DNA of 64,000 bases from Calditrichia bacterium (GCA_965227145.1 OZ245730.1:451661-515660), one strand, 5' to 3'; counted from the first letter of the stretch, positions 36,467 through 63,291 are shown. A program made the numbers and translations. The notes: generated by a model from the letters alone, not told the origin.

Positions 36467-37138
36467 TTAACTATTAAATATCTGATTAAAATTATAGAAG
36501 CAAGTCGGTTCGCTATTGTTCTTATTGTACTGCTTAAATTTCTTTGTGAGATTTGAAATAGCAATATACTTTGACATACTGTCACAGGTCTTTGATTTTC
36601 TTGCTTTTTGTAAAATTTTTAGTTGCACATCTTCAATTGAAATTAGACCAACTCCATTATTTTTCAAGATTTGGAGATCAACATTTTTAACATATCTTGA
36701 ATGTATTGCAAGGTAAGAATAGTCCGAAAAGTAACTATACCTAAGTGCTTGGTAAAAGCCCCCCCGCCAATCTTTAACTTTTACTTCTACCGAAGAAAGA
36801 GAGGGTAACTTTGAAAAATCTATATAATAATTAATAAAAATCGAGTTGTTGTTTACTATTAATAAATTTTTGCTAATTAGTTCTTTGACTATGTTGTCTG
36901 TTTTTCTTTTTGCTAACTTAGATTGGCTGTAAAGGTCATAAGTGTTTTCAATGCGATTTTCAACAATTGCGTTATATATTTTCAAGGTATAATAATCGTT
37001 GATATATGGGCTGTTGACTTTTTTATCCAAGAAAGCGATATCCGGAATTCCTATACCCATCCTAACCTCATTGGCATAGACAACTTTGCAACGTTCCAGA
37101 ACGTTATTAAATGTTGCGACTAGCTCATTTTCTTTCAT
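36467..37138 (-). CDS. hypothetical protein, possible PD-(D/E)xK-type nuclease, co-operonic with kinase fusion
   Basis: Starts 3 nt after the kinase stop on the same strand and is AT-rich. Candidate motifs GIGIPDIAF…VEVKVK…QALRY (hPD…ExK…QxxxY), but the spacing is atypical. Confidence 0.5.
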   Translation of the reverse strand: MKENELVATFNNVLERCKVVYANEVRMGIGIPDIAFLDKKVNSPYINDYYTLKIYNAIVENRIENTYDLYSQSKLAKRKTDNIVKELISKNLLIVNNNSIFINYYIDFSKLPSLSSVEVKVKDWRGGFYQALRYSYFSDYSYLAIHSRYVKNVDLQILKNNGVGLISIEDVQLKILQKARKSKTCDSMSKYIAISNLTKKFKQYNKNNSEPTCFYNFNQIFNS

Positions 37139-37140
37139 TA

Positions 37141-39198
37141 CTATATACCATAAAGTTTTCTTAGTTTTTCAATTACTAACTGCCAGTTATTCAAAAATTG
37201 ATAACTTTCAGGCTTAAATATAGCCTTAAGAGCCTTGTAATAATTTAAACTTTCGACTATATCGTTATTGAGTTTATCCAATCTTTCTGTCGTTGTTTTT
37301 TGTAACAATATATCAATTTCATTTTGGATACGATACAAAAAGTGCTTTTTGGTGTTTTTGTCAATAATTATGTCTTCAGGTGGTTTTCCCTTGCAATAGG
37401 GACAATTGCAGGCCAAGTTTTTTCCAGTGGCTCCTGCGAGAATTGCAAAAAGTTTTGATGGGTCTTTTCGATTAATAGGGACATTCGCAAAAAGCTCAGG
37501 TATATAATATCTAACAAATAAATTATATGAATCTGTTCTGTCTTTGTATAAATCCTCATAAAAACTTTCAAATCTTGCGCTACCAGACTCAAAGCCATGG
37601 ATTCCAAATGCAAGTAGTAACAAGCCAATTAAGCCTACTCTACCGGCAATGACTGGTTTACCAGAAGAAACTTGTAATGTTCTGAGTGTCTGAATGAAGT
37701 GGTATAGCTCTGAAGTTGATGATTGATGATTTATGCAATCGACATAAATAAGATAGCCGTCACATGGGAGACCAGTTAAAATGTTAATAAAATATTCTTT
37801 TTCAACCTTACTTGTTAATATCTCTGAACGAATTGAAAAACCTGCGATTAGAGGAATTGAAATATTGTTTTCATCTAGATACATCCTAGTTTGTTTTATT
37901 AGGCGATAATCGACATTAAACCAGTTTAGCTGCCTATCGTGTTTTATTGTTATGTGTTCAGAATTATTACTTACGTGAAAGGGGCTGACTAAATAAGTGG
38001 GATCATGTTCCAGTTGAGTATCAATAACGCTTTTTATATATTGGTATCTTTTTGTGTCATCATCTAAGTCAGATAACTCGATTTTTGAATAATTACTAGG
38101 CGCATAAGGTAGTTGTGTTAAACCTTTTACATCTGAAAAAGTATCATATGCTAAACGCATTGTTGCAGGGTCAAACATTAAATTTATTTTGGGGTTTTGT
38201 AGAATTTTTAGCAAATTTTTTTGTTGATATTGATGGTTGATCGGGAAAATAGCATTTTTTATTTTATACCCGTCATTGAGGTACTCAGTTAATACTTGCT
38301 TCTCGTTCCAAGTTCTCAAATAAAGCCCTGGTTCAAAGTAATTACGATTATGCTTTGGTAGTTGGTTATTTGTGATATTAAAGTATTTTTTTATATCAGA
38401 TATCGAATTTGGTCGATTATGTACAGTTTTTTCAAGAAGATGATAAATCAACTTTTCATAGGACGCATCTAAATCTGGTCGATATAATAATATAGAATCC
38501 GGCCTATTATTTAGAATTCTATAAAATAATTCAGGAAGTGAGGTTGCTCTCCCATAGGGACTTACTTTAGTAAGAATTTCAAAGTATAACACTCCTAAGG
38601 AATAATAATCAGAACGGTAATCTATATTTTTTGAATCATTTATTTGTTCTGGTGACATATACAGTGGGCTACCAATTTGGCTTCCTGTGCTGGTTAGCGA
38701 GGAATAATCAATAAGCTTTGAAAGCCCAAAGTCGAGAAGTTTTATTTCACCTGCGTTTGTTAAGTAGATATTCTCAGGCTTTAAGTCCCTATGAATTATT
38801 CCCTTAGAGTGTATTGCATTTAATCCTTCTAGTATTTGAAAAAAGATGTCCTTTTCATTAATTTGTCGATTATTCCTTATTATATCACGGATATCTGAGC
38901 CCTCAAGGAATTCCATCACGACATAGATATAAATTTGTGAATTTTCTATTAATTCTCCACTCTCAATGTATTTGATCACATTTGGGTGATCGATTCTTGT
39001 TAAGGTTTCAATCTCTCTTGAAATACGGTTATTCGCCCCTCGTGTAAATTCCTCATAAACATATTCTCTATTAAATATTTTAATGGCATAGGTTTTAGAA
39101 GTAGTATCCCTAATGCATTTATAGACTGATCCAAATGCACCTTTTCCAATAAAAGAGGATATTGAATAGCATCCAATTTTTTTTCCTAACATTACCAT
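37141..39198 (-). CDS. Hanks-type Ser/Thr protein kinase fused to a C-terminal tRNA-guanine-transglycosylase(TGT)/DpdA-like domain
   Basis: Kinase subdomains: GKGAFGSVYKC (G-loop), YAIKIF (VAIK), HRDLKPENIYL (catalytic loop), DFGLSK (DFG), GSPLYMSPE (APE). The ~400-aa C-terminal domain contains LMFDPATM (cf. TGT DSGGYQ), GKPVIAGRVG…GIHGFES (cf. TGT KPxYLMGVG…GIDMFD) and a Zn-type CNCPYC (CxCxxC) followed by HFLYRIQNEI (cf. TGT His and HNL helix). Confidence 0.7.
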   Translation of the reverse strand: MVMLGKKIGCYSISSFIGKGAFGSVYKCIRDTTSKTYAIKIFNREYVYEEFTRGANNRISREIETLTRIDHPNVIKYIESGELIENSQIYIYVVMEFLEGSDIRDIIRNNRQINEKDIFFQILEGLNAIHSKGIIHRDLKPENIYLTNAGEIKLLDFGLSKLIDYSSLTSTGSQIGSPLYMSPEQINDSKNIDYRSDYYSLGVLYFEILTKVSPYGRATSLPELFYRILNNRPDSILLYRPDLDASYEKLIYHLLEKTVHNRPNSISDIKKYFNITNNQLPKHNRNYFEPGLYLRTWNEKQVLTEYLNDGYKIKNAIFPINHQYQQKNLLKILQNPKINLMFDPATMRLAYDTFSDVKGLTQLPYAPSNYSKIELSDLDDDTKRYQYIKSVIDTQLEHDPTYLVSPFHVSNNSEHITIKHDRQLNWFNVDYRLIKQTRMYLDENNISIPLIAGFSIRSEILTSKVEKEYFINILTGLPCDGYLIYVDCINHQSSTSELYHFIQTLRTLQVSSGKPVIAGRVGLIGLLLLAFGIHGFESGSARFESFYEDLYKDRTDSYNLFVRYYIPELFANVPINRKDPSKLFAILAGATGKNLACNCPYCKGKPPEDIIIDKNTKKHFLYRIQNEIDILLQKTTTERLDKLNNDIVESLNYYKALKAIFKPESYQFLNNWQLVIEKLRKLYGI

Positions 39199-39369
39199 CC
39201 CTTTCCTTTAAAGAAGTCGTTACACATATTTTTAATACTACTGAAAAAATTTAAGTTCTTCGAAAGATCCTCATAAGTATTAAATGTTTGGAGTTTTTAG
39301 AATTAGATAAAAAACAAAGCTTAACAAGAATAATTCTTTGGGTTATTAAAAGTTAAATAAAAGAGGATT

Positions 39370-40365
39370 TCAGTCCTGCCAGGCAGTCAGAACTCCATTC
39401 TCAAAGTAAACATAAGTGCGATAATAAACCCACTGCTCATGAACTCCCCACGATCCAACCGACCTGTTAATATCACGAGGATCACCCCAGCTTGCACGTA
39501 CCATTTCCCTGCTCATTCCAATATAAATTTCTCCATTTAAGATTTGATTTTTTCTAGAACGTGATAATTTTGGATTGTCTCTAACGAATTTTTGTCTTCT
39601 TAAATCACTTTCAGAAATTAAAGCCACTTCACGATAGCTTACAAGATCCTTGCTTATCCAAGCATCTGTATACTTTTGTTTTAACTGTTTAAGGGTAGAC
39701 GGGGTAGTGTTATTATTTTTAATACGAATCTTAATCCAGCTTCCCGCTTCAAGATTTTTATAAACAATTTCTCCTTGCCTAAGAGTTGATACAATTTTGC
39801 CACCAGTTGATGATGTATCTCGTACATTGGCAGTTAGTGAGCTAATCCATAACGGTGTTGATTCATACTCAATGTCAAGTTTTTTGGCATTAGTGCTCTC
39901 GGCTTTTCGGTCTATTGAGCTTTTAAATGTGCCCTCATTATTAACATGAAAGCTTAACTCTCGTTTGATAGATGCAAGTTCATTTTGTAGTTTTGTAAAT
40001 GAGGATATGTCTGGTGAGTCTTTAATGAATGATTCAAAAATAAAACCCTTTTTACCTTGAAACTCAACAAAGGCATACTTTTGTGATTCATGTCTGTTTT
40101 CAATAAAACGAAATAAATGGATTTCATCTCCGGAACTAATTTTAGCAATTTTTTTTGAACTACGTGATCCTTCTCTGAATAAACTCGCGCCATATACCAG
40201 CTTGACGGTTAGCCCTTCATTATTGATCCTATTAATTTGTGTTTCTAATTTTTTTTCAAGAAGTGTTAAGCTATCAAGTTTAGCCACATATAAGCGATTT
40301 GCTACGTCGGAGTACTGCGCATGGCAAATCAGGCTAACAAATAACAATAATATCGTAATTCTCAT
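39370..40365 (-). CDS. secreted protein with C-terminal BamE/SmpA_OmlA-like domain
   Basis: Signal peptide MRITILLLFVSLICHAQ. C-terminus GMSREMVRASWGDPRDINRSVGSWGVHEQWVYY…NGVLTAWQD resembles the BamE fold signature. AT-rich. Confidence 0.5.
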   Translation of the reverse strand: MRITILLLFVSLICHAQYSDVANRLYVAKLDSLTLLEKKLETQINRINNEGLTVKLVYGASLFREGSRSSKKIAKISSGDEIHLFRFIENRHESQKYAFVEFQGKKGFIFESFIKDSPDISSFTKLQNELASIKRELSFHVNNEGTFKSSIDRKAESTNAKKLDIEYESTPLWISSLTANVRDTSSTGGKIVSTLRQGEIVYKNLEAGSWIKIRIKNNNTTPSTLKQLKQKYTDAWISKDLVSYREVALISESDLRRQKFVRDNPKLSRSRKNQILNGEIYIGMSREMVRASWGDPRDINRSVGSWGVHEQWVYYRTYVYFENGVLTAWQD

Positions 40366-51458: not shown

Positions 51459-52370
51459 ATGATTAACTATATTGATGGAAAGTTTTTTGCTTCGCCTGCT
51501 CAAGTGTTTGTAAATACTGTGAATACTGTTGGTGTTATGGGCAAAGGTGTTGCAAAGGTATTCAAAGATATTTATCCCGATATGTTTAAAATTTATCAGA
51601 AATTATGTGATTCTCATGAGTTAGGGATTGGGAAATTACAGCTATACAGAAGCTCAAATAAGTGGATTTTAAACTTCCCAACTAAAAAAGATTGGCGGCA
51701 TCCTTCGAAGGTAGAGTATGTAGAGGCCGGGTTAAAAACATTTGTGGATTCATATGTTGATATGGGTATAAATAGCATTGGGTTTCCTGCGCTTGGATGT
51801 GGGAATGGCGGGCTTGACTTTGAAAAGCAGGTTAAACCACTGATGGAAAAATATTTGTCAAACCTGCCAATTGCCATTTTTATTTATCCCCATAAACATA
51901 ATTATGGGCTACCTGAGCATACAGATAAAGCTGGTATGAAAAAGTGGCTTCAGTCGGAACCGTACTTTCTGCCATTTTCCGAAGTTTGGAAGGACTTGGT
52001 GAATACTCTTGAAAGTCGAAAGCACTTTAATACGCTTGACAAAAATACGCCATTTGAAGCAATTTTGGATAATTTGGCAGTTATCAAAATAACTACATCA
52101 TGTGATGTTCTCTATGTCCACAAAGAAGATACAATGGACTTTTGGCAACAAATAAGAAGCTACGGTTTCATATCAAGTATGGACGCACCCTCGGGACTAA
52201 ACCAAATTTTTTACTATTTATCCCCGATTTTTAGTGTACTAGGCTATATCAAAGTTATCAGATTAGTTAATGAAAATGTTGCAAGAAGCATTTATGGCTT
52301 ACAATACTTTGAACCTTACGTTTATAACAATATGATTTATGACGCTGATGAACATTTAAATTTCTATTAA
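51459..52370 (+). CDS. macro-domain (ADP-ribose binding/hydrolase) protein with ~150-aa C-terminal extension
   Basis: Macro motifs VFVNTVNTVGVMGKGVAKVF (cf. VNAAN…GGGV…AI) and NSIGFPALGCGNGGLD (cf. IAFPAISTGVYG). AT-rich cassette. Confidence 0.75.
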   Translation: MINYIDGKFFASPAQVFVNTVNTVGVMGKGVAKVFKDIYPDMFKIYQKLCDSHELGIGKLQLYRSSNKWILNFPTKKDWRHPSKVEYVEAGLKTFVDSYVDMGINSIGFPALGCGNGGLDFEKQVKPLMEKYLSNLPIAIFIYPHKHNYGLPEHTDKAGMKKWLQSEPYFLPFSEVWKDLVNTLESRKHFNTLDKNTPFEAILDNLAVIKITTSCDVLYVHKEDTMDFWQQIRSYGFISSMDAPSGLNQIFYYLSPIFSVLGYIKVIRLVNENVARSIYGLQYFEPYVYNNMIYDADEHLNFY

Positions 52371-52519
52371 AACAACAAGGAAAATGTCTGGTATTTGATC
52401 AAAACTCTTTTTACGCCGTTGATTCTTTCTAAATAATAACAAGCAGTTGAATTATTGGATCAATTTTCATAAATATGCTTAAGAATTGAAACAAGAATAG
52501 CGTGGAGAATATTTGCTTG

Positions 52520-53443
52520 ATGAAAAATGGACTATATATGGATTCAGAACATATTTTAATAAAAGGGGACACCCTTAAAAATTTAAAAAAAATCGAATCG
52601 GACAAATTCGATTTAACAATCACGTCTCCACCTTACAACATTGGTAAGGCATATGAAACCAAAATGTCAATTGAAAAATACTTAGAGCTCCAGGAAGAGG
52701 TGATTGCGGAGCTGGTTAGAGTTACGTCGAGCCGAGGTAGCATTTGCTGGCAGGTTGGTAATTATGTGGATAATGGTGAAATTTTTCCTTTAGATATTTA
52801 CTACTATCAAATTTTCAAAAAGCTAAATCTAAAGTTAAGAAATAGGATAATCTGGCACTTTGGACACGGGCTGCATGCGTCTAACCGATTTTCGGGTAGA
52901 TACGAAACTATTTTGTGGTTTACAAAAACTGATAACTATATTTTTAACCTTGATGACGTTAGAATCCCCTCTAAATACCCCGGAAAAAGACACTTTAAGG
53001 GCCCAAACAAAGGCAAGCCATCTGGTAACCCAAAGGGTAAAAACCCTTCGGATATATGGGAAATCATTATGGGCGACTGGGAAAAGGGGCTTTGGGATAT
53101 TCCTAACGTAAAATCAAATCATCCTGAGAAAACGTCTCACCCCTGCCAGTATCCGGTTGAGCTAATTGAAAGATGCATATTAGCTCTAACTAATAACGAC
53201 AGCTGGGTTTTAGATCCATATGTAGGGGTAGGATCGACGGCAATAGCAGCGATCAAAAACGGGCGTAGTGTAGTCGGGATTGACAAAGAAGAAAATTATA
53301 TAAAAATTGCCAACGAGCGAATTCGGGACTTCAAAGTTGGAAAACTTAGACTAAGACCTATCAATAAGCCCATACACAAGCCAAGCCCAAATGACAAAGT
53401 TGCGCGAATTCCGGACGAATGGAATATAGGTAACCCAAAATGA
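52520..53443 (+). CDS. beta-class amino-DNA methyltransferase (N4-cytosine/N6-adenine, SPPY motif)
   Basis: FDLTITSPPYNIG catalytic motif near the N-terminus. AdoMet motif in the C-terminal part (VLDPYVGVGSTAIAA). Start ambiguous (GTG 52502 / ATG 52520 / ATG 52538). Confidence 0.8.
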   Translation: MKNGLYMDSEHILIKGDTLKNLKKIESDKFDLTITSPPYNIGKAYETKMSIEKYLELQEEVIAELVRVTSSRGSICWQVGNYVDNGEIFPLDIYYYQIFKKLNLKLRNRIIWHFGHGLHASNRFSGRYETILWFTKTDNYIFNLDDVRIPSKYPGKRHFKGPNKGKPSGNPKGKNPSDIWEIIMGDWEKGLWDIPNVKSNHPEKTSHPCQYPVELIERCILALTNNDSWVLDPYVGVGSTAIAAIKNGRSVVGIDKEENYIKIANERIRDFKVGKLRLRPINKPIHKPSPNDKVARIPDEWNIGNPK

Positions 53444-54054
53444 GAATATCCCAAAAGTATTCACACCTGAACGGCGAGGAGTTTCTGATTGTGCATCACA
53501 ACGACATTTATCAAGAAATAAAGGATGTCGTTAGTTCGATAGATGCTAATGTGTATAGGACAAAGGTTAGCCAGGAAAAGAGATCGCCTGGTAAGCTACT
53601 TTATAGCCCGGTTGATATCAACCAAGCTCTAAAGGAAGAGTTTGCAAGTAGAGGTTGGAACGAATCAAGGTATTCCTACTACATAACGCTTAACAGGCAA
53701 CTCATGGAAGAAAGCCTGAAGATGGATATACAGGAACAACGGAAGTTCTTCATTGAAAATGGTGACGCCGAGCCGATTTACTCATACAATCAAACAGACT
53801 TTCTTAAGGACCTGATCGCAATAGAAGTTCAGTTTGGTAAATACGCGTTTGTCGCGTATGATCTATTTGTTAAGCATATGCTATTTTTTTCCGGCGGAAA
53901 AATTAATCTGGGAGTAGAAATTCTACCAACCAAGGTAATGCAGAGAGAAATGTCATCCGGAATTGCCTATTTCGAAGGCGAGGTCTATAACGTAATGCGT
54001 CAAGGAAGAACAAGCCCCCCCGTTCCTTTACTCATATTAGGGATTGAACCGTAG
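53440..54054 (+). CDS. BglII/BamHI-family Type IIP restriction endonuclease-like protein
   Basis: Start overlaps the MTase stop (ATGA). The segment LKDLIAIEVQFGKYAF closely resembles the BglII active-site strand (…RDTLVEVQFSNYPF…, Glu/Gln pair). The N-terminus is also BglII-like. Confidence 0.6.
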   Translation: MRISQKYSHLNGEEFLIVHHNDIYQEIKDVVSSIDANVYRTKVSQEKRSPGKLLYSPVDINQALKEEFASRGWNESRYSYYITLNRQLMEESLKMDIQEQRKFFIENGDAEPIYSYNQTDFLKDLIAIEVQFGKYAFVAYDLFVKHMLFFSGGKINLGVEILPTKVMQREMSSGIAYFEGEVYNVMRQGRTSPPVPLLILGIEP

Positions 54055-55275: not shown

Positions 55276-55595
55276 TGCAGGAGGCGCTGAACATTGCCGC
55301 AGAGCAGGCGCCGACCCTGTTTGTGCTGGTTTTTCTGGTGGTGATCTTCATTTTGTCCACCCGAAAAACCACAAAGTCGTTCCTGGAGCACCTGGACCAT
55401 AAGGACATCCGGACCGAGCAGATGGTGGATAAAATGGCGGAAACGGTCGAGCGAAACACCGACAAGATGAACGCCGCCATCGAGAAAAACACCGACAAGA
55501 TCAACTCGGCGCTGGAGCGGAATACCGAGATGCTCACGCATGTGCGGATAGTCCTGGACACCAAAAAGCAAAGTGGGAGAAATGAGCAAGCATAA
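55275..55595 (+). CDS. small membrane protein with repeated ERNTDK units
   Basis: TM helix LFVLVFLVVIFIL. Internal repeats VERNTDKMNAAIEKNTDKINSALERNTEM. Confidence 0.35.
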   Translation: MQEALNIAAEQAPTLFVLVFLVVIFILSTRKTTKSFLEHLDHKDIRTEQMVDKMAETVERNTDKMNAAIEKNTDKINSALERNTEMLTHVRIVLDTKKQSGRNEQA

Positions 55596-56112
55596 CCTGA
55601 AGTATGTCTCGCCGCACGAGATCACGCCGTATTATAACAACCCGCGAAACAACGACGCGGCGGTCCCGAAGGTGGCGGAATCGATACAGGCTTACGGATT
55701 CCAGCAGCCCATTCTGGTGGATGAAAATATGGAGATCCTCGCCGGCCACACCCGCTGGAAGGCGGCGCTGGTCCTGAATTTGGAGAAGGTGCCGGTGGTG
55801 GTTTCGCATGGGCTGGACGAGAAGCAAAAGCGCGCCTACCGGATCGCGGATAACCGCTTTGGCGAGCTGGTGGACTGGGATTTCCAGAAGCTGTTTGTGG
55901 AGCTGAAGGACCTGGACGGGATGCCGGTGGGCTTTACAGCGGAGGAGCTGGAGGCGAAAATCGGCGGGGAGAACGATCCTTTTGACGACAAGGGCATCTC
56001 GGATATGAGCCAGTATGGCGTGATCATCATTTGCGACGACGCGGCGCATCAGGAGAAAGTTTACACGGATCTGTCCGACGCCGGCTATACCTGCAAGGTG
56101 GTGGTGACATGA
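55573..56112 (+). CDS. ParB-like nuclease (ParB/Srx) domain protein
   Basis: Segment QPILVDENMEILAGHTRWKAA matches the ParB N-terminal domain signature (…DG.HR..AA). Confidence 0.7.
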   Translation: MGEMSKHNLKYVSPHEITPYYNNPRNNDAAVPKVAESIQAYGFQQPILVDENMEILAGHTRWKAALVLNLEKVPVVVSHGLDEKQKRAYRIADNRFGELVDWDFQKLFVELKDLDGMPVGFTAEELEAKIGGENDPFDDKGISDMSQYGVIIICDDAAHQEKVYTDLSDAGYTCKVVVT

Positions 56113-56804
56113 TTATCCAGGTGCGCAACAAAACGAAGAATTTCAACGGCTACCGGGCGGCGCGGGTTAAGTCCCTGTTCAACGCTGAGCGCGGCGATAC
56201 TTTCGAGCTGGACGCCAACCTGCCCATTGAAGACCTGGACTGGCAGATCGGGCTGGTCGTTGGCGGCAGCGGGTCGGGCAAAACCTCCATCGGGCGGGCG
56301 CTATTTGGCGGCGGGAAGCTGGTCGATTTGTATGCCGGCTGGGATCCGGATTTGCCGATCGTTGAGGCGATTTCTCCGGAAAGCGATTTCGACACGATCA
56401 CCGGCGCTTTGGCGAACGTCGGGCTGGGCGATGTGCCCAGCTGGCTGCGACCGTTTCATGCATTGAGTAACGGGCAGCAGTTCCGGGCGGGGCTGGCTCG
56501 GGTGATTGTCGAGGCGCCGGATCAGGCGGTGATCGATGAATTTACGTCGGTGGTGGATCGCCAGATCGCCAAAATCGGCGCGATGGCGTTTGCCAAGGGC
56601 TGGCGCAGAAACAAGGGAAAGCAGATTGTTTTGCTCTCCTGCCACTACGATATCGTTGAGTGGCTGCAGCCGGACTGGGTATTTGATACCGGCGCCGGCG
56701 AGCTTAAAAAAAAAGCCAAATCGGGGAGCGCCCCAGCTTCGAGCTGGAAGTTTGGAAGGTCAACGGCGCTTACTGGAAGCTTTTTAAGGAGCATTACTAT
56801 TTAG
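56109..56804 (+). CDS. ABC-type ATPase domain protein (probably continues by frameshift into downstream GNAT frame)
   Basis: Walker A (GGSGSGKTS), ABC signature-like (LSNGQQFRAGLARVIV), Walker B (AVIDEFTSVVD). The frame terminates 90 nt after an A9 run. The GNAT frame is open from 56708. Confidence 0.6.
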   Translation: MIIQVRNKTKNFNGYRAARVKSLFNAERGDTFELDANLPIEDLDWQIGLVVGGSGSGKTSIGRALFGGGKLVDLYAGWDPDLPIVEAISPESDFDTITGALANVGLGDVPSWLRPFHALSNGQQFRAGLARVIVEAPDQAVIDEFTSVVDRQIAKIGAMAFAKGWRRNKGKQIVLLSCHYDIVEWLQPDWVFDTGAGELKKKAKSGSAPASSWKFGRSTALTGSFLRSITI

Positions 56805-56812
56805 ACCTGCCC

Positions 56813-57226
56813 ATGCCGCCGGCGTCGGAGTATTTCGTTGGGACGGTGGACGGCGAGCTGGTGTCGCACCTGGCGGTTCAGCCGTTTTTCACCGCCAACG
56901 CCTACCGGGCGACCCGGCTGGTGGTCATGCCTGAGTGGCAGGGCGCCGGCGTCGGGACGAAGTTTCTGGAGTATGTTTGCGAGCTGCACAAGCAGGGCTT
57001 GGGTCGCTGCGAGAGAAGGCTTCCGACCCTGTTTCACACCAGCCACCCGCAGCTGATCGGCTACCTGAAGCGCAGCCGGAAGTGGGTGCTGAAGTCCCAG
57101 CAGATTTTTGGCGGAAACAAGGCAAAGAGCGCAAGAAGCCTGACCAAAGCCGGCTCGAAAATCACCTCCGGCTATGGCGGGCACTTCCGGGCGGTGCAGG
57201 GATTCAAATACATTGGAGAAAAATGA
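56813..57226 (+). CDS. GNAT-family acyltransferase domain (open frame extends upstream to 56708)
   Basis: Acyl-CoA binding motif (MPEWQGAGVGTKFLEYV) and the beta-strand pattern of GNATs. Confidence 0.55.
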   Translation: MPPASEYFVGTVDGELVSHLAVQPFFTANAYRATRLVVMPEWQGAGVGTKFLEYVCELHKQGLGRCERRLPTLFHTSHPQLIGYLKRSRKWVLKSQQIFGGNKAKSARSLTKAGSKITSGYGGHFRAVQGFKYIGEK

Positions 57227-57915
57227 TCGGCGTAATGACAGAGCAGGATGCAACAAGCCTTTTTGAGTCCCGAAAGGCAGCAAAGCCCTTCCGGGTCTTC
57301 ATCAGCGGGCAGAAGTTTTTCGGGCAGGAAGTCCTGCAGCTTTGCCTGAATTTTGGCTTTGATGTCGCCGGCGTTTGCTGCCCGGTGGGCGACAAGTACC
57401 TGGGCAGGCTGGCAGCGCTGAACGGTATCCCCGTGATGCCATCGGGAAGCCTGACGGCGGAGACCATGCCCGACCGGGTCGATCTGGGCATTGCGGCGCA
57501 TTCGTTTGACTACATCGGCAGGCGGACGAGATACCGGGCGAGGCTCGGCTGGATCGGCTATCACCCCAGCCTGTTGCCGCGGCACCGGGGGCGCTCGAGC
57601 ATCGAGTGGGCGTTGCGGATGCGGGATATCGTCACCGGCGGGACCATTTACTGGCTGAACGACGGGATCGACCGCGGCGATATCGAGCGGCAGGGCTGGA
57701 TCTGGCTGGATCACTCCAGGACTGCAGCCGAGGTTTGGCGGGGCGAGCTGCTCCCGCTGGGGCTTCGCTTGATGGGCGAGGCGCTTTCTGATATTTCCCG
57801 CGGCGTGGTCAACCGGCAGCCGCAGGATAACCGATTTTCAACCTTTGAGCCTTCGCTGGAGGGCATCAGGGATATCTACAAACCCGATATGTTAATGCTT
57901 ACAGATGGCAGATAA
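57226..57915 (+). CDS. formyltransferase, Fmt/PurN/ArnA N-domain-like (catalytic domain only)
   Basis: Colinear with Fmt (RVFISGQKFFGQEVL…; GIPVM; LGWIGYHPSLLPRHRGRSSIEWAL; GGTIYWLNDGIDRGDI; QPQDNRFSTFEPSL). SLLPxxRG signature. Catalytic His and Asp present; the Asn of the N-x-H pair is replaced by Gly. Confidence 0.8.
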   Translation: MGVMTEQDATSLFESRKAAKPFRVFISGQKFFGQEVLQLCLNFGFDVAGVCCPVGDKYLGRLAALNGIPVMPSGSLTAETMPDRVDLGIAAHSFDYIGRRTRYRARLGWIGYHPSLLPRHRGRSSIEWALRMRDIVTGGTIYWLNDGIDRGDIERQGWIWLDHSRTAAEVWRGELLPLGLRLMGEALSDISRGVVNRQPQDNRFSTFEPSLEGIRDIYKPDMLMLTDGR

Positions 57916-58353
57916 GTGGCACGCAGTAAATACAACGAGGATTTCCCGCTATTGGCGGAAGGCTACGCGCGGGAGGGGCTCAACGATGAACAAATCGCGG
58001 CGAAGTTGGGAATTTCAAAGCCAACTTTTTATGAGTATCAAAAGCGCTATCCAGACTTTTTTAACTCCATAAAAAGGGGTAAGGCGCCGGTTGATACCGA
58101 GGTCGAGAATTCGCTGCTGCGGAACGCGCTTGGCTTTGAGTATGAGGAAACAACCCAGGAAATCAGGATCATCAATGGCAAAGAATATAAAACTATCCGG
58201 AAAACGAAAAAGTTTGTTGTGCCCAGCACGACTGCCCAGATCTTCTGGCTTAAGAACCGCAAGCCCCACAGGTGGCGGGATAAGCAGGAAATTCTTATTG
58301 GCAATGATGTTGATATCAACGTTTCTTTGCGGGAAACCGATGCCGACGATTAA
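57916..58353 (+). CDS. terminase small subunit
   Basis: HTH segment LNDEQIAAKLGISKPTFYEYQKRY. Sits immediately upstream of, and overlaps, the large-subunit gene. GTG start. Confidence 0.6.
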   Translation: MARSKYNEDFPLLAEGYAREGLNDEQIAAKLGISKPTFYEYQKRYPDFFNSIKRGKAPVDTEVENSLLRNALGFEYEETTQEIRIINGKEYKTIRKTKKFVVPSTTAQIFWLKNRKPHRWRDKQEILIGNDVDINVSLRETDADD

Positions 58354-59551
58354 TGTCACTATCGACCCTGCCGTTTTTAACGCCACCTACCTGCCTTACC
58401 TGGATTATACCGGCAAGCGCTTTGAGGTGCTTTACGGCGGCGCAGGCTCGGGCAAGTCCGTGTTTATTGCCCAGCGCAAGGTTTACCACCACCTGAAGTA
58501 TAAGGGGCGGAAAACGCTGGTTATCCGGAAGGTCGGGCGGACGCTGCGGCACTCGGTTTTTTCGGAGGTCGCCGGCGTTATCAGCAGCTGGAACCTCGGG
58601 CAGATTTTCCAGGTGAACAAGTCCGATCTGGAGATCCATAACCGCGTGAACGGTAACCAATTTATTTTCAGCGGGTTAGATGATGTTGAAAAGATGAAGT
58701 CCATCGCGGGGATCACCGATATCTGGATTGAGGAAGCCAGCGAGATCAGCGAGGACGATTTCAAGCAGCTGAACCTGCGGCTTCGCGGCGCATCCAAGGC
58801 GATGAAGCAGATCACCCTTTCGTTCAACCCGGTTTCGGCGCTGTCCTGGCTGAAGAAGCGCTTTTTTGACCGGCGGGACGAGAATGTTCTGAAACTCAAA
58901 ACGACCTACATCGACAACCGTTTTCTGGATCCGGACGACGTGGCGGAGATCGAGGCGCTGAAGGAAATCGATCCGGTGTATTGGCGGATTTACGGCTTGG
59001 GCGAGTGGGGCGTGCTGGGCGACCTGGTTTATACCAACTGGGAAATCCGGGATTTTGACCCGGATCTGAAGCTTTTCCCGCGGCAGTATAACGGGCTGGA
59101 CTGGGGCTTTAACGATCCCGCGGCTGCGATCAAGGTGGCTTTCAAGGATGCGGAAATTTATGTCCTGAACGAGCTGTATGTGAAGGGCATGGACAACAGC
59201 GAGCTGATGGCGGAGGCGCCGGCGGTGTTCAGCAAGGCGGGCGATTCGATTATCGCGGACAGCTCGGAGCCGGCGCGAATCAAGGAGTGGAAAAAGAACG
59301 GCTGGAAAATCCGGGGCGCGAAAAAGGGCAAGGACTCGGTGTCCTTCGGCATCGATTTTGTGCGGCGCCACAGGGTGATCATCCATCCAACCTGCCAGAG
59401 TTTTATCAACGAAATCCAGGCGTATTGCTACCGGAAGGATAAGGACGGCAACACGCTGGAGGAGCCGGTCGATTTTAACAACCATTTGATGGATGCGCTC
59501 CGCTATGCCCTGGAGCCGATTGCCCACGAAAGACAACTGAGGTTTGCCTGA
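58340..59551 (+). CDS. terminase large subunit (PBSX/XtmB-like)
   Basis: Walker A (YGGAGSGKSVFIAQRK) and an ATPase/nuclease two-domain length (404 aa). The ATG at 58340 is preferred over the longer upstream extension. Confidence 0.8.
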   Translation: MPTINVTIDPAVFNATYLPYLDYTGKRFEVLYGGAGSGKSVFIAQRKVYHHLKYKGRKTLVIRKVGRTLRHSVFSEVAGVISSWNLGQIFQVNKSDLEIHNRVNGNQFIFSGLDDVEKMKSIAGITDIWIEEASEISEDDFKQLNLRLRGASKAMKQITLSFNPVSALSWLKKRFFDRRDENVLKLKTTYIDNRFLDPDDVAEIEALKEIDPVYWRIYGLGEWGVLGDLVYTNWEIRDFDPDLKLFPRQYNGLDWGFNDPAAAIKVAFKDAEIYVLNELYVKGMDNSELMAEAPAVFSKAGDSIIADSSEPARIKEWKKNGWKIRGAKKGKDSVSFGIDFVRRHRVIIHPTCQSFINEIQAYCYRKDKDGNTLEEPVDFNNHLMDALRYALEPIAHERQLRFA

Positions 59552-59699: not shown

Positions 59700-61142
59700 A
59701 TGGATTTGCCGTTGCCGAAATCGTTGAGTGAGATGATTGCTGAAAACGGGCAGGCGCCCGGCATCACCCGGATTATCCGGGATCTGATCGAGTCCGATCT
59801 GGGATCCGAGGAGAAGCAAAAAGCCTTTGAGGGGATTGCCTACTATAACGGCGATCACCAGATCCGCTACAAGAAGCGCTATTATTACGATAAGCACAAG
59901 AAGCGCCAGGAGGACACGATCAAGGAGAACGCCCGCCCGGTGAATAACTTCCACGCGGATTTTGTGGACGAGAAGGTTTTCTATGTGCTGGGGCAGCATC
60001 CCGGATTTACCTCGGTGAGCGAGCAGCTCGCCGGCGATCTGGACAAGGCGCTGGACCTGAGCTTTTACGAAACGCTGCAGAACGCGGTCGAGGGCGCCTC
60101 GAACAAGGGCAGCGAGTTTATTTATGTGTATGTGGAAAACAACGCTTTCAAATATACCGTGATGCCTTTCGAGGAGCTGATCATCATACGGGACCAGAGC
60201 ATTGCCAAAAATATTACGGACGTGGTGCGCTACTACCTGGTGGAGGTGATCACCGAGGGCGACAAAAAGCTCCGCTACCGGGTGGAGTGGTATAAGCCGG
60301 AGGCGGTGACCTACTTTATGGAGCAGGCGGACGGGAAGTTTGAGCTGGACGAGAACGAGCCGGTGAATCCCAAGCCCTATTTGACGCGGGTCCGGGAGGT
60401 GGAGCGCGTGAATATTCCGGTGGACTCGGCGGCCTGGGGGGCGCCGGCGCGGCTGCCGTTTATCGAGGTGGCCAATAACCGGCGCCGGCAGACAGACCTG
60501 GAGCGGATCAAGAGCCTGCAGGATTTATACAATGTGATTGAGGCGGGCTTTTTTGACAATATCGCGGATATGCAGGAGCTGGTGACGGTGGTGAAGGACG
60601 CGGTGGGCAGCGATCCGGCGGAGGTGCTGGAAAACCTGCGGCACTACAAGCTGGTGCTGGCTGAGGAGGGCGGCGGGATTGAGGCGGTGAAGGCGGAGAT
60701 TCCGGTGGAGGCGCGGGAAACGGCGCTGAAGCGGCTATACCGGGATATCCACCACTTTGGCAAGGCGGTGCTGTTTGAGCCGGACAAGTATGCCAGCGCG
60801 CCCTCGGGCGTGGCGCTGAAGTTCCTATATTCCCGGCTGGATATGAAGGCGGACGACGTGATCCTCTCGCTGCGGGCGGCGCTGAATGCCTTTGTGGAAT
60901 TTTTTGTGATTTTCCAGAAGTGGGCGAAGGGCGTTGACTATGGCGAAAATGCCTTTGTGGAGTGGACGTTTAACAAGTCTCAGATTTTTAACGAGGCGGA
61001 GCAGGTGGAGAGCTGCCAGAAGTCCAAGGGGATTGTGTCGGATGAAACGATTCTGGCGCACCATCCGTTTGTTTCGGATGTTCAGGAGGAGCTGAAGCGG
61101 GTGGAGACGGATCAGGATTTGAAATTGAACCTAGAAAATTAG
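59700..61142 (+). CDS. portal protein (SPP1 gp6-like) candidate
   Basis: 480-aa acidic protein directly after the terminase large subunit. Typical order and size. Confidence 0.5.
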   Translation: MDLPLPKSLSEMIAENGQAPGITRIIRDLIESDLGSEEKQKAFEGIAYYNGDHQIRYKKRYYYDKHKKRQEDTIKENARPVNNFHADFVDEKVFYVLGQHPGFTSVSEQLAGDLDKALDLSFYETLQNAVEGASNKGSEFIYVYVENNAFKYTVMPFEELIIIRDQSIAKNITDVVRYYLVEVITEGDKKLRYRVEWYKPEAVTYFMEQADGKFELDENEPVNPKPYLTRVREVERVNIPVDSAAWGAPARLPFIEVANNRRRQTDLERIKSLQDLYNVIEAGFFDNIADMQELVTVVKDAVGSDPAEVLENLRHYKLVLAEEGGGIEAVKAEIPVEARETALKRLYRDIHHFGKAVLFEPDKYASAPSGVALKFLYSRLDMKADDVILSLRAALNAFVEFFVIFQKWAKGVDYGENAFVEWTFNKSQIFNEAEQVESCQKSKGIVSDETILAHHPFVSDVQEELKRVETDQDLKLNLEN

Positions 61143-61208: not shown

Positions 61209-62702
61209 TCATCTTACATTTTTCACGCAGCGGATGTATAAAATATCGTTTTGAGAGGCAACAGCGGACCAGGTGCCGTTATCTCCATCAGCTATTTTTG
61301 TCATAATCGGGATTTGATTATTATTCTTTGGCCCCCACCACCCGCTTCTTTTTCCAAGGTAATAAAATTTTCCATTCCATAGCCATCCACCGGGGCGAGC
61401 AGAAAAGCCGGTTGAATTCGTGGCTTTACCATTGTTTGGCCAGTAATCCCCTGTTTCTCTTTTTTCTCTCAATTGATAAGCCGCAAATGTTAACCCTTTA
61501 GCACCCGGTTCTATCGTTATACCATCTACTTCTTTATCATACCATTTACGTAAAACCAATTCCCAATCCTCTTGGCCGGGAATTCGCCATCCGTTTGGGC
61601 AGACATCGCAATCTTTGATTGTGGTCCAATTGTAGAGCGGTCCATATACAACGCTGTTGCTGCTTTTGGGCGAATTATCGTGCCAATACATGGCCGCTTT
61701 GCTGTCTTTTTCATCTAAATTCACACGCTTGATATCTTTGATTGTTTGTGTGGAAGCATCCCACCACCGGCGTGCCCGCAGATTCTCTGCCATCCAAAAT
61801 CGATTGTCAATTTTTACAACCCGATAGAACGGATACAAATCAATTTTCGCCAAATTGTTGAGAATCCGTTCATCAAAAGATTTGATCCTGTTGGGTATGG
61901 CTGCCGTTATTTTTGTTAATGTTTCCTGTGCGAAACGATCATTTCTATATTTAACAACGAGGTATGCGACAAAACTTTCAGCAACATCTTCCCTGCATTT
62001 AAAATCAAAAGCATACTTTGAAATGTACATGGGATCATCGTTTTGAATTTGTTGCCATTCTTCCTTACAAACTTCCCCTTCATTGTAATATAAATAATCC
62101 AAGGCAGCATGGCATGACTCGTGAATCAAGGTTTCTTCTTCAACTTTTCTTCTTTCATAGTCCCTTGAATGTTCTCCATCAACTTGTAAATCTAACCACC
62201 CGACATTCCGGTTGCGATTACCCCCCCAAGCCAAATCGCCTTTCATTAGATTAATATGGTTAACGCCTTCACGTAAAAAGGCAGGAATCCTTCCCATCAT
62301 TGTTGCATATTTTATGGCAAGAGTTTTGGCATCTGCTTGATCTGGATAATCGCTCTTTCTAATATTTATTTTTGAGGTTATATCGTCATCATATGTAATG
62401 CTGAAAACATAAGCCTCAGGGTAATCCCAAGCACCAGCGCCATTGTTAGCCTCCCTATCGTACATTTCAACCCTTGGTTCAATTGTTGGGCCGGAAATTG
62501 TTTTATAGGTGGTTAGGTCGTCTTTATTCACCAGGTCCGAATATATAAAAGTTGTTCCATCTTCGGACATGTAATTTTGGGTTGTCTGGGCTTGCGTTTT
62601 ATAAGTTGAGAGAAAAAAACAGCACGCTACCAATCCTAGTAAGATTGTATTTTTTAAGATACATATTTTACGTTTTTTTTCAGTCCTTATTAATATACCC
62701 AT
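61209..62702 (-). CDS. lipoprotein with HExxH metalloprotease domain and C-terminal Fibrobacter succinogenes major paralogous (FISUMP) domain
   Basis: Lipobox LLGLVACC. Zinc motif LIHESCHAALD. C-terminus …WMAENL…YNW…CPNGWRIPGQEDWELV…TGFSARPGGW… matches the FISUMP pattern. The upstream in-frame extension to 62774 is probably not coding. AT-rich. Confidence 0.6.
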   Translation of the reverse strand: MGILIRTEKKRKICILKNTILLGLVACCFFLSTYKTQAQTTQNYMSEDGTTFIYSDLVNKDDLTTYKTISGPTIEPRVEMYDREANNGAGAWDYPEAYVFSITYDDDITSKINIRKSDYPDQADAKTLAIKYATMMGRIPAFLREGVNHINLMKGDLAWGGNRNRNVGWLDLQVDGEHSRDYERRKVEEETLIHESCHAALDYLYYNEGEVCKEEWQQIQNDDPMYISKYAFDFKCREDVAESFVAYLVVKYRNDRFAQETLTKITAAIPNRIKSFDERILNNLAKIDLYPFYRVVKIDNRFWMAENLRARRWWDASTQTIKDIKRVNLDEKDSKAAMYWHDNSPKSSNSVVYGPLYNWTTIKDCDVCPNGWRIPGQEDWELVLRKWYDKEVDGITIEPGAKGLTFAAYQLREKRETGDYWPNNGKATNSTGFSARPGGWLWNGKFYYLGKRSGWWGPKNNNQIPIMTKIADGDNGTWSAVASQNDILYIRCVKNVR

Positions 62703-63291
62703 CCATGTGCCTTTTTTTCCCATGCCTGTTGGAATACTATCCAACTTAATTTTTACTTGCGTAACTCGTTTCATACATTTGCCTCTTCTCTTTAGGTTAT
62801 TGTTGCCATAATCCTGATCAATGAAAGACTATGATGGGTTCATAACAGTTATTTTCAAAATGCTGTATGTGGCATGGGTAAGAGATTTTAGGTTTTTCAG
62901 AGTTTAAACGGCAGATGGATTATTAAAGCGAATATTTTCCGGTTCGTCATATAAGGCTGGTTTTCTTATAAAGGTAATTCACCAATATTTTGGAGATGCT
63001 GAACCCAGATTATCCAGGATTAAAAACTATTTCCGAGGTTTTCGCTTTTAACGAGTGCGAATTTTAGTAGAGAGGATATTGCTAAAACTAATTATACCGT
63101 AATTACGCGTTTTTGTCAAGTAGAAATCTGGCTCTGAAGGTTTTATTTTTTTTGCTAAGAAAAAGCTTGTAACAATTGGGTAATTTGAATCAGATCCAAC
63201 GATATAATATTTTTTCATAATATGATTGCGACTTCATATATCTTCAATTATACGCTTATAACTTTCTCCTGCGCTAACAAAGGAGTAAGTT

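Follow-up and report, generated by a model that had tools for sequence, protein, structure and literature searches.

Introduction

The closest described counterpart of the gene cassette reported here is a DNA modification system made up of a GNAT acyltransferase and an ABC-type ATPase, which was predicted by Aravind's group in NAR in 2013 and restated in Viruses in 2021 (PMC7824862). The system is a computational prediction only and concerns a two-domain phage protein family that is expected to acylate a DNA nucleobase. The known ac4C writers, the TmcA/NAT10 enzymes, are likewise built of an ATPase joined to a GNAT, and they acylate a pairing base amine in RNA. The corresponding erasers are ASCH-domain proteins, including YqfB, which are N4-acylcytosine amidohydrolases (PMC6972931). 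Another GNAT, Mom of phage Mu, glycylates N6 of adenine in double-stranded DNA from Gly-tRNAGly (PMC13219725). In phage thymidine dioxygenases, a ParB-like protein of CTPase fold is needed to activate the base-modifying enzyme, and such systems are often located close to the terminase genes (PNAS 2026, PMC13229309). The formyl-transferring FDH domain of ALDH1L1 passes its formyl group to a 4'-phosphopantetheine thiol, and the N-domain of HypX is proposed to make formyl-CoA (PMC6802093). Both domains take the formyl group from 10-formyl-THF, and the acceptor is an ACP arm in ALDH1L1 and, as proposed, CoA in HypX.

In this study we analysed a prophage locus in a 64,000-nucleotide stretch of Calditrichia bacterium DNA, hereafter called the window, in which genes for a ParB_N protein, an ABC-type ATPase, a GNAT and a formyltransferase (FT) precede the packaging genes. 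The preliminary description of this locus held that no module like it had been described. This was wrong, because the ABC-GNAT pair is already predicted to be a DNA modifier in the 2013 and 2021 papers, and the window gene is a member of the same family, phrog_11143. The 2013 text aside, we found in published accounts no FDH-type FT, no small domain (SD) of the kind described below, no ParB-SD-ABC-GNAT fusion and no slippery poly-A tract in such genes, and no description of a combined cassette of formyltransferase, GNAT, ParB and ABC ATPase; nor did we find in the literature an experimental study of any cassette member. The cassette is widespread, occurring in thousands of phages and prophages from at least a dozen bacterial phyla. 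Tractable carriers in culture include the Gordonia Sourvirus group and the Gordonia phages Axumite, Fresco and Shatter, Burkholderia phiE255, phages of Porphyromonas gingivalis, prophages of Streptococcus pyogenes and Pseudomonas Komp_PAO1_1.

Results

All genes of the locus lie on the plus strand, in the order ParB_N gene, ABC-type ATPase, GNAT, Formyl_trans_N, terminase small subunit (terS), terminase large subunit (terL) and SPP1-type portal. Pfam profile searches recovered the ATPase, GNAT and Formyl_trans_N domains where the preliminary description had placed them, and they also bore out its statement that the cassette follows a ParB-like gene and directly precedes the terminase genes. 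The ParB_N domain protein has 179 aa (55573..56112; ParB_N E 1.8e-9, phrog_620 E 2e-44), and its stop codon overlaps the start of the ATPase in an ATGA at 56109. A second ATGA overlap is found at 57223, where the FT gene begins (57223..57915), and this gene is followed by terS (57916..58353; phrog_309 E 6.6e-51), by terL (from an inferred start at about 58340 to 59551; Terminase_3 E 1.7e-60, with Terminase_3C) and by the portal gene (59700..61142; SPP1_portal E 8.3e-67). Because these genes overlap or abut, the cassette and the packaging genes form one operon inside the prophage. Between 54 and 61.3 kb, no internal promoters or terminators were detected above the shuffle expectation.

The locus had first been read as encoding three enzymes back to back. 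The three domains stand, but the separate ATPase and GNAT genes do not, since comparison with homologous sequences indicates that both belong to one gene, which a poly-A tract divides in two, and the cassette therefore encodes two enzymes rather than three. The ATPase half (56109..56804; Pfam ABC_tran) is in frame 0, while the GNAT half (56708..57226; Pfam Acetyltransf_7/1), annotated as an ORF at 56813-57226, is in the -1 frame relative to it. A single PHROG family, phrog_11143 (357 positions), spans both halves, with E values of 9e-84 for the ATPase and 1e-36 for the GNAT, and the window halves are 60-74% identical to hundreds of its full-length members. The search gave more than 5,800 homologues, each about 375 aa long. 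ATPase and GNAT form one uninterrupted protein of this size in all of the 120 best homologues and in all 160 related loci that we compared, and the best match in a scan of genome contigs, among which the window's own genome did not figure, was 62% identical. The junction in the window is an A9 homopolymer in the ATPase/GNAT linker (56706..56714), and the GNAT frame opens exactly at this run. The only start codon of that frame is at 56813, and the invariant HYYLDLP motif of the GNAT is located upstream of it; on the other side, the last 30 codons of the ATPase ORF, past the tract, are out-of-frame read-through. As sequenced, the window requires a -1 slip to give a single ABC-GNAT chain. A tract of ten A restores an intact protein of 372 aa, as is found in P0245, a relative at least 90% identical.

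The motifs of both domains are well preserved. The ABC half carries Walker A (GGSGSGKTS), the signature (LSNGQQ), Walker B with its catalytic Glu (VIDEF) and the H-loop (CHYD), and these motifs are invariant. This half resembles the nucleotide-binding domain of transporters rather than DNA-binding ABC proteins such as SMC, Rad50 and UvrA. Its best NCBIfam score for an ABC transporter equivalog is 30.5 bits, where the cut-off is 131.6, and there is no membrane gene in the operon. The GNAT retains the fold and an intact Q-x-x-G-x-G CoA motif.

The FT is a stand-alone catalytic domain of 230 aa (Formyl_trans_N E 8e-14, phrog_9240 E 9e-46). As the preliminary description had noted, it ends after the catalytic domain and has no Fmt-type C-terminal tRNA-binding domain. 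Its scores were 25.8 bits against the NCBIfam cut-off of 150.1 for PurN, and 49.7 bits against 201.5 for Fmt. Among proteins in the PDB it matched the FDH N-domain with E values of 4.5e-19 (single sequence) and 1.4e-33 (family profile), and Fmt with 3.7e-21. Judged by these scores, it is neither PurN nor Fmt and is closest to the N-domain of ALDH1L1. With the ALDH1L1/HypX N-domains it shares a YHPSLLPRHRG-S-I-W motif and a His/Ser/Asp triad, which corresponds to H114, S116 and D150, invariant in 121 sequences of the family; Gly112 is likewise invariant where PurN-type enzymes have Asn. The phage FT differs from ALDH1L1 and HypX in having no OB-fold subdomain, carrier, ALDH or hydratase domain, and a sequence search from the FT gave no match to HypX.

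The ParB_N protein, which has the ParB/Srx fold, scored 38 bits against PF02195 (cut-off 26.3), but as a chromosomal ParB it reached only 38.8 against the TIGR00180 cut-off of 58.45. By jackhmmer and alignment we found that it carries a previously unnoticed C-terminal SD of about 45 aa (55966..56109), with the core QYGVIIICDDAAHQEKVYTDLSDAGYTCKVVVT at 56011-56109, which is part of the cassette. In most related loci the SD is a free-standing protein of 50-80 aa encoded directly upstream of the ABC-GNAT gene. It stands alone in 82/139 loci and is fused to ParB_N in 33/139, and ParB_N itself is present in only about one quarter of the loci. The SD matches phrog_28816, a PHROG of unknown function, and a Pfam search at E <= 10 returned only noise and no family. 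A conserved Cys of the SD was considered as an acyl-carrier thiol and rejected, because several FT-containing loci do not have it.

Synteny was compared across 160 related loci from many phyla, with adjacency counted over 137 loci for the FT and 152 for the SD. The FT follows ABC-GNAT directly in 124/137 loci (91%) and the SD directly precedes it in 127/152 (84%). The linkage of the FT to the ATPase/GNAT is thus conserved across many phyla, and the FT, with scores below both cut-offs, is not the unlinked housekeeping PurN or Fmt copy that the preliminary description had named as a refuting outcome, which supports that description. Lineages without the FT also exist. Natural fusions include one chain of ABC-GNAT-FT (L034) and chains of ParB_N-SD-ABC-GNAT in at least eight cluster representatives. 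Terminase genes lie directly downstream in about half of the loci, and their large subunits belong to four Pfam families; in phiE255, which is Mu-like, the cassette is found distally in the tail operon, at its end. Streptococcus phages have an ASCH gene 3' of the GNAT, one locus (L005) has an ASCH gene that separates the fusion from the FT, and DNA methyltransferase genes adjoin the cassette in two further loci (L012 and L120).

Discussion

The preliminary description had proposed that the cassette acts on a nucleotide, a DNA base or an aminoacyl moiety. Of these, a role on DNA is the best-supported reading, given the ParB-SD-ABC-GNAT fusions, the ASCH and methyltransferase neighbours and the proximity to terminases. 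On balance we lean towards the view that the cassette is a late-expressed DNA modifier. This view starts from what the sequences show, which is how the gene is built, the family it belongs to, its synteny and natural fusions, the polymorphism of the tract and the integrity of the motifs; from these we infer a substrate, a chemistry, a formyl-CoA relay and a role for the tract. In such a modifier the ParB/SD part would hold the enzyme on DNA or activate it there, the ABC module would spend ATP to clamp the substrate or expose a base, and the CoA-dependent GNAT would acylate an exocyclic base amine, with N4 of cytosine as our leading guess. The resulting mark would shield progeny DNA from host nucleases. 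The resemblance of the FT to thiol-directed domains of the ALDH1L1/HypX type, which pass a formyl group from 10-formyl-THF on to a pantetheine thiol, suggests that it may supply formyl-CoA to the GNAT; it would make formyl-CoA, or formylate CoA bound to the GNAT, so that the written mark would be N-formyl, and lineages without the FT would use acetyl-CoA. The length of the A tract would set the amount of full-length ATPase-GNAT relative to ATPase alone. Counting against this view are the transporter-like character of the ABC half, the presence of ParB_N in only about one quarter of the loci while most have just the SD, and the failure of the FT to match HypX by sequence. In addition, N-acyl groups on N6 of adenine have been reported to be unstable (PMC13219725).

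The cassette can be compared with two of the systems introduced above. Like Mom, it has a GNAT fold, and it is predicted to share late expression, an exocyclic amine of phage DNA as target and restriction evasion. In Mu, mom lies at the distal end of the tail operon, as the cassette does in phiE255. Unlike Mom, the GNAT of the cassette comes with an ABC ATPase, a formyltransferase and ParB/SD partners, and it shows no similarity to the Mom family. Because the canonical CoA motif is present, its donor is probably an acyl-CoA and not a tRNA, and a Mom-like tRNA-dependent mechanism is not favoured in view of this motif and the lack of Mom similarity. Like the ParB-dependent thymidine dioxygenases and the ParB_N-DNA methyltransferase fusions, the cassette has a ParB-like protein beside or fused to a base modifier, here a predicted one. 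It differs from the dioxygenase systems in that the partner is ABC-GNAT plus FT and in that the link is made through a domain of about 45 aa, often without ParB_N.

If an acyl or formyl mark on DNA proves true, it would be a natural DNA modification of a new class as well as a new way to counter restriction, with a bearing on phage sequencing, cloning and the choice of phages for therapy, and it would provide new DNA-labelling enzymes. A computational prediction that is now 13 years old is narrowed to specific assays, and a probable recoding or phase-variation switch is flagged in a putative DNA-modification gene. We offer only tentatively, as a speculation more likely to fail than to hold in all its parts, the fuller scheme of an N-formyl DNA relay, in which an ALDH1L1/HypX-like FT would pass formyl to CoA and on to an ABC-driven GNAT seated on a ParB clamp by way of the 45-aa adaptor, while the tract, and in Firmicutes phages the -1 site, would deliberately yield both subunits or phase-vary the mark. 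Such a relay would add a new base to natural DNA and make this GNAT the first one known to act on formyl-CoA; we know of no natural GNAT that uses formyl-CoA, which counts against it.

The strongest alternative is that the target is RNA, which we regard as rather improbable but deserving of attention. ABC-GNAT would then be an analogue of TmcA/NAT10 on tRNA or rRNA, or the GNAT and FT would both target the alpha-amine of aminoacyl-tRNA in the manner of AtaT/TacT toxins and Fmt, so that translation is taken over or tRNA-directed defences are countered. Transfer RNA is a live alternative because ASCH proteins and the TmcA/NAT10 writers act on ac4C in RNA. An NTPase fused to a GNAT and a pairing base amine as acceptor, the latter predicted for the cassette, are common to both systems, and Met-tRNA formyltransferases are the next-best relatives of the FT after FDH. 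ASCH genes recur near the cassette, and this family removes ac4C from nucleosides and tRNA (PMC6972931). Unlike TmcA/NAT10, however, the cassette has an ABC nucleotide-binding domain in place of a RecD-like helicase, and Pfam gave no match to a TmcA-type helicase, to GNAT_acetyltr_2 or to a tRNA-binding domain, a domain that the FT also lacks at its C-terminus. The context is one of phage DNA and ParB: several lineages fuse ParB_N to the enzyme in a single chain, and DNA methyltransferase genes and terminases are close by. These observations all favour DNA as the target.

A two-step hypermodification, in which the GNAT adds an acyl group bearing an amine, such as an aminoacyl group, and the FT then N-formylates this amine directly, is in our opinion unlikely. 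It corresponds to the stepwise acylation and formylation suggested earlier, and we do not favour it, since the FT groups with the thiol-directed domains of the ALDH1L1/HypX type. Most enzymes of the formyltransferase family do formylate amines, and the ABC-GNAT-FT fusion is compatible with sequential action. Mom, itself a GNAT, can aminoacylate adenine in DNA (PMC13219725). In the FT family, however, the Asn of the Asn-His-Asp triad found in amine formyltransferases is always missing, and there are lineages without any FT. Moreover, tRNA-dependent aminoacyl transferases are without the canonical CoA pyrophosphate-binding motif, which the GNAT retains.

Another question is whether the split of the ABC-GNAT gene has any meaning. 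Homopolymers are known sites of recoding and phase variation, as in the transcriptional slippage of Thermus dnaX, IS elements and Shigella mxiE, and in the phase-variable Mod methyltransferases ('phasevarions'). The A9 run is the longest homopolymer of the window. Close relatives, located through an exact-protein cluster look-up, are polymorphic for it, with A10 in P0245, L172 and L173 and A9 in the window and in L174-L179, which have a different SNP haplotype. A10 also occupies the same linker in three relatives that are 62-74% identical and have diverged flanks (L009, L092 and L007), and the tract is therefore a probable site of slippage or phase variation. Firmicutes phages also change to the -1 frame at this boundary between the two domains, and the junction is conserved (caggtttttcaattcccccac; Streptococcus 315.4, Lactococcus P335). 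The tract thus resembles homopolymer recoding sites and phasevarions in being an A9/A10 run within an ORF, polymorphic in close relatives and conserved in distant ones, and phasevarions in particular in its location in a predicted DNA-modification gene with a predicted truncated or full-length product. It differs from those cases in having no stimulatory RNA structure downstream. The 76 nt 3' of the tract fold no better than shuffled sequences (z = 0.01), and on this ground a ribosomal -1 frameshift with a stimulatory structure was rejected. An exact-pattern scan of metagenome contigs for the tract region gave no matches.

That the split is instead a sequencing error or the mark of a dead pseudogene seems to us quite unlikely. 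Assemblies err most often by one base in a homopolymer, genes are commonly inactivated by the same kind of change, and the tract sits 3' of a complete ATPase. Nevertheless, A9 is present independently in the NCBI genome and in six separately assembled Logan contigs of a second haplotype, and the GNAT frame shows no decay, with four synonymous and no non-synonymous changes between the window and L172 and with every invariant GNAT residue upstream of the ATG intact. The retention of the tract in the more distant relatives and the Firmicutes junction also speak against it. Counting against the preferred reading of a slippage or phase-variation switch, the A9 allele could simply be an inactive state.

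We give little credence to the idea that the GNAT acylates a phage or host protein, such as RNA polymerase, as with phiKMV Rac, or a ribosomal or packaging protein, while the FT would serve one-carbon metabolism. In its favour, the best structural neighbours of the GNAT are RimI and Naa-type protein N-acetyltransferases, and examples of phage GNATs acting on host proteins have been described (PMC7824862). Finally, the reading of the FT as a PurN/Fmt-type auxiliary metabolic gene and of the ATPase as an ABC transporter subunit that lets the lysogen import or export a substance, which goes back to a 2010 annotation and survives in the database labels 'phosphoribosylglycinamide formyltransferase' and 'ABC transporter', is effectively refuted by NCBIfam scores far under the cut-offs of PurN, of Fmt and of all ABC transporter equivalogs, by the lack of a membrane partner, by the fusion of the ATPase to a GNAT and by a linkage that is conserved across phyla and phage types.

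Two other candidates were also considered. A 7-deazaguanine/DpdN pathway was rejected, as the prophage part of the window contains no DpdA, preQ0/preQ1 synthesis or Que genes. An anti-phage defence system was rejected as well, since the PADLOC matches were marginal, namely the MTase_II model to ParB_N and mad3 (E 1.5e-6) over 40 residues of the ATPase. The homologues of the SD include gp28 of phiE255 and an 'acr candidate' of P. gingivalis phages.

Results

On the + strand between 55.5 and 61.2 kb of the window, the genes are densely packed as an operon in which stop and start codons abut or overlap. They encode a ParB_N protein (55573-56112), an ABC-type ATPase ORF (56109-56804), a GNAT ORF annotated with 137 aa (56813-57226), a Formyl_trans_N protein of 230 aa without the Fmt-type C-terminal domain (57223-57915), terS (57916-58353), terL (about 58340-59551) and an SPP1-type portal (59700-61142). 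ORF and domain annotation of this region confirms the coordinates and domain calls of the preliminary description. Promoter- or terminator-like sites are no more frequent here than in shuffled sequence. We assign the region to a prophage because phage replication genes, an M15 peptidase and a low-GC insert lie 5' of the operon.

The preliminary description had three enzymatic domains, ATPase, GNAT and formyltransferase, encoded back to back. The observation is real, but instead of three genes there is one split gene, ATPase-GNAT, plus one more, since the two ORFs match positions 3-202 and 230-351 of a single family, phrog_11143 (function unknown, 357 positions), and the homologues are uninterrupted. 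A joined ATPase-GNAT query has more than 5,800 homologues, the best 120 of which are all about 370-390 aa, and the fusion is continuous in 80/80 genome loci and 80/80 viral loci; the family comprises 772 clusters at 50% identity (E <= 1e-30). In the window the frame changes at a run of nine adenines (A9, 56706-56714). The -1 frame opens exactly at this run, because the preceding stop TAA overlaps its start, and reads KKSQIGERPSFELEVWKVNGAYWKLFKEHYYLDLP ahead of the first possible start codon (56813). This stretch holds the family-invariant K27, H29, Y30, Y31, L32 and L34, so the annotated 137-aa ORF would miss essential parts. One added A restores a single protein, and this full-length A10 allele is modelled as a compact protein whose linker is ordered (pLDDT 85.5, pTM 0.80). 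Another homologue, P0338 (715 aa), from the representatives search, carries an intein (Hint plus LAGLIDADG homing endonuclease) within its ATPase part.

Exact-sequence look-up reveals three kinds of members in the 90% cluster of the ATPase. Two are split pairs, one being that of the window (231 + 137 aa, on a 6.28-Mb contig) and the other occurring on seven Logan contigs; the third is intact, with 372 aa. The tract is A10 in the intact relatives L172 (a Calditrichia-labelled contig of 2.26 Mb) and L173; the window shares A9 with six Logan contigs, L174-L179. The flanking SNPs of these six differ from those of the window, which puts A9 on two haplotypes and in assemblies made independently. The reading that the A9 allele is simply dead has to be weighed against the comparison of the window with L172, where the GNAT region in the -1 frame has 4 synonymous and 0 non-synonymous differences (ATPase 16/3, formyltransferase 23/8, ParB 26/5), with no sign of decay. 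The A9 run is the longest homopolymer of the 64-kb window, in a gene of 58-60% GC. A10 stands at the same linker position in L009, L092 and L007, which are only 62-74% identical and differ in the flanking codons (GEVKKKLNKRP, MSFKKKIRQRP and TFKKKSEVGSRP). That ten consecutive A's are kept across such divergence argues for selection on the homopolymer itself. Folding of the RNA 3' of the tract does not surpass that of shuffled sequence, which makes a structured ribosomal frameshift signal less plausible than slippage during transcription or in the DNA (phase variation).

A frame difference between the two halves, with GNAT again at -1, also occurs in Lactococcus P335 and Streptococcus prophages. 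Streptococcus phages Javan141, Javan420 and 315.4 and Lactococcus phage P335 (L004 4560-4700, L089 3520-3760, L090 3520-3800, L091 3430-3700) have a conserved overlap sequence (caggtttttcaattcccccac; also given as caggtttttcaattcccccacgaagc), and these loci offer no credible start codon ahead of the invariant HYYL motif. This junction, which lies at the domain boundary marked in the window by the poly-A tract, is a candidate for a programmed -1 frameshift, and recoding at this boundary may have arisen twice. All four loci are without a formyltransferase.

In the ABC half, the Walker A, signature, Walker B-Glu and H-loop motifs are all invariant. Structure comparison places it with transporter-type nucleotide-binding domains, some of which serve enzymes other than transporters, as with PhnK; it does not resemble SMC or Rad50. 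For the formyltransferase, identity as PurN or Fmt is ruled out by scores far under both equivalog cut-offs. Among solved structures it is closest to the N-terminal domain of 10-formyl-THF dehydrogenase (FDH), ALDH1L1, with which it has YHPSLLPRHRG-S-I-W in common. The FDH domain is matched at E 4.5e-19 with a single sequence and 1.4e-33 with a family profile, the best Fmt at 3.7e-21, and ArnA and PurN at about 1e-8 to 1e-12. Among 121 family members H114, S116 and D150 are invariant, and so is Gly at position 112, the place of the catalytic Asn in PurN, Fmt and ArnA. The FDH domain transfers formyl from 10-formyl-THF to the 4'-phosphopantetheine thiol by a His/Ser/Asp triad, and the FDH-like N-domain of HypX has been proposed to formylate CoA to formyl-CoA (PMC6802093, PMC8748788).

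Conservation was counted over 160 related loci (80 genome and 80 viral) from Bacteroidota, Firmicutes, Planctomycetota, Verrucomicrobiota, Chloroflexota, Proteobacteria, Acidobacteriota, Spirochaetota and others. The formyltransferase directly follows the fusion in 124 of the 137 loci with enough sequence. The last ~45 residues of the window's ParB protein form a small domain (SD; Y[KR]xQ[YF]GVIVxCxDExxQxxxYxxLxxxGxxxKVVxV) for which the Pfam search gave no family. It is homologous to free-standing 50-80-aa proteins encoded immediately 5' of the fusion, among them gp28 of phiE255 and, in P. gingivalis phages, the 'acr candidate'. SD adjoins the fusion in 127/152 loci, being free-standing in 82/139 and fused behind ParB_N in 33/139. 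Single chains also exist: ABC-GNAT-formyltransferase on an Oscillospiraceae MAG contig (L034 1245-2849, 534 aa), and ParB_N-SD-ABC-GNAT (about 570-620 aa) in at least eight representatives of 50% clusters (P0311, P0349, P0315, P0376, P0348, P0324, P0337, P0279). In about half of 60 loci the first large gene 3' of the cassette encodes a terminase large subunit, drawn from four different Pfam families; the remaining loci have the cassette at a prophage edge. Cultured phages keep this gene order: genes 1-4 of Gordonia phage Axumite are ParB, fusion, formyltransferase and terminase, gp28-gp30 of Burkholderia phiE255 close the tail operon, and in P. gingivalis phages the cassette stands at the record end.

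Discussion

The genomic context points to a nucleic-acid base as the target. In some lineages ParB_N is in the same chain as the enzyme. Phage DNA thymidine dioxygenases have recently been shown to be activated by a ParB-like protein (PMC13229309). N6_N4 DNA methyltransferase genes occur just 3' of the cassette in L012 (7641-8939; a ParB_N-methyltransferase fusion directly after the formyltransferase) and in L120 (6614-7552; without a formyltransferase, the second ORF after the ABC-GNAT gene), which suggests that DNA-modification genes are stacked at this position. Mom is a GNAT shown to modify dsDNA (PMC13219725). An ASCH-domain gene directly follows GNAT in Streptococcus prophages (L091 3996-4373, L004 5090-5467, L090 4085-4461), and on an unrelated contig (L005 1860-2225) an independent one separates ABC-GNAT from the formyltransferase. 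Members of the ASCH family act as hydrolases of N4-acylcytosine nucleosides and as erasers of ac4C in tRNA. The combination of ATPase and GNAT is also found in TmcA and NAT10, which write ac4C.

We propose that ParB-SD, ABC-GNAT and the formyltransferase are made from the operon late in infection, and that ParB/SD would tether or activate the enzyme on DNA. The ABC module would then dimerise with ATP and clamp DNA or expose a base, and GNAT would acylate an exocyclic amine, the acyl group being taken from CoA; the ASCH neighbours and the analogy to TmcA make cytosine N4 the leading guess. The formyltransferase may supply formyl-CoA, such that cassettes with it would write N-formyl and those lacking it acetyl, and the poly-A tract may fix the ratio of ATPase-only to ATPase-GNAT protein or act as an on/off switch. 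Among less likely rival readings, an RNA target would fit the tRNA ac4C erasers and has the ParB_N fusions and methyltransferase neighbours against it. Against a two-step pathway, acyl then formyl, stand the loci without a formyltransferase. GNAT may also act on a protein, or the A9 allele may simply be dead.

That the ABC ATPase-GNAT pair of phages acylates a DNA base was predicted by Iyer et al. (2013, restated in 2021, PMC7824862). A 2010 paper mentions phiE255 gp29 and gp30 and gives no function, and literature searches found no experimental study of the cassette; the module is therefore already described, by computation only. The earlier idea of DNA modification is reasonable and agrees with the existing prediction, but its novelty was overstated. 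The FDH-type formyltransferase, the adaptor domain SD, the Rosetta-stone fusions and the conserved slippery tract were not found in the accessible literature. The cassette is very widespread.

Within the 55-60% GC sequence of the prophage, the insert at 51459-54054 (35-41% GC) encodes a Macro-domain protein (51459-52370), an N6/N4 DNA methyltransferase (52502-53443) and a BglII-like restriction endonuclease (53440-54054). In L172 these flanking phage genes enclose an HNH_2 gene on the opposite strand (3146-4072) instead, and gene calls in this interval had no methyltransferase, BglII-type or Macro match, with Pfam precomputed for part of the collection only. The insert looks like a variable moron/defence hotspot. 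A 521-aa gene of low GC (40%; 61209-62774, - strand) is inserted between the portal and the remaining head module; the same place is kept in L172, whose copy has a Fib_succ_major domain. Just beyond the high-GC phage region, a block of very low GC (31-36%; 36467-40365, - strand) encodes a 685-aa Ser/Thr protein kinase (37141-39198, - strand) and an SH3_3 protein (39370-40365, - strand), and may be another island or prophage-border cargo.
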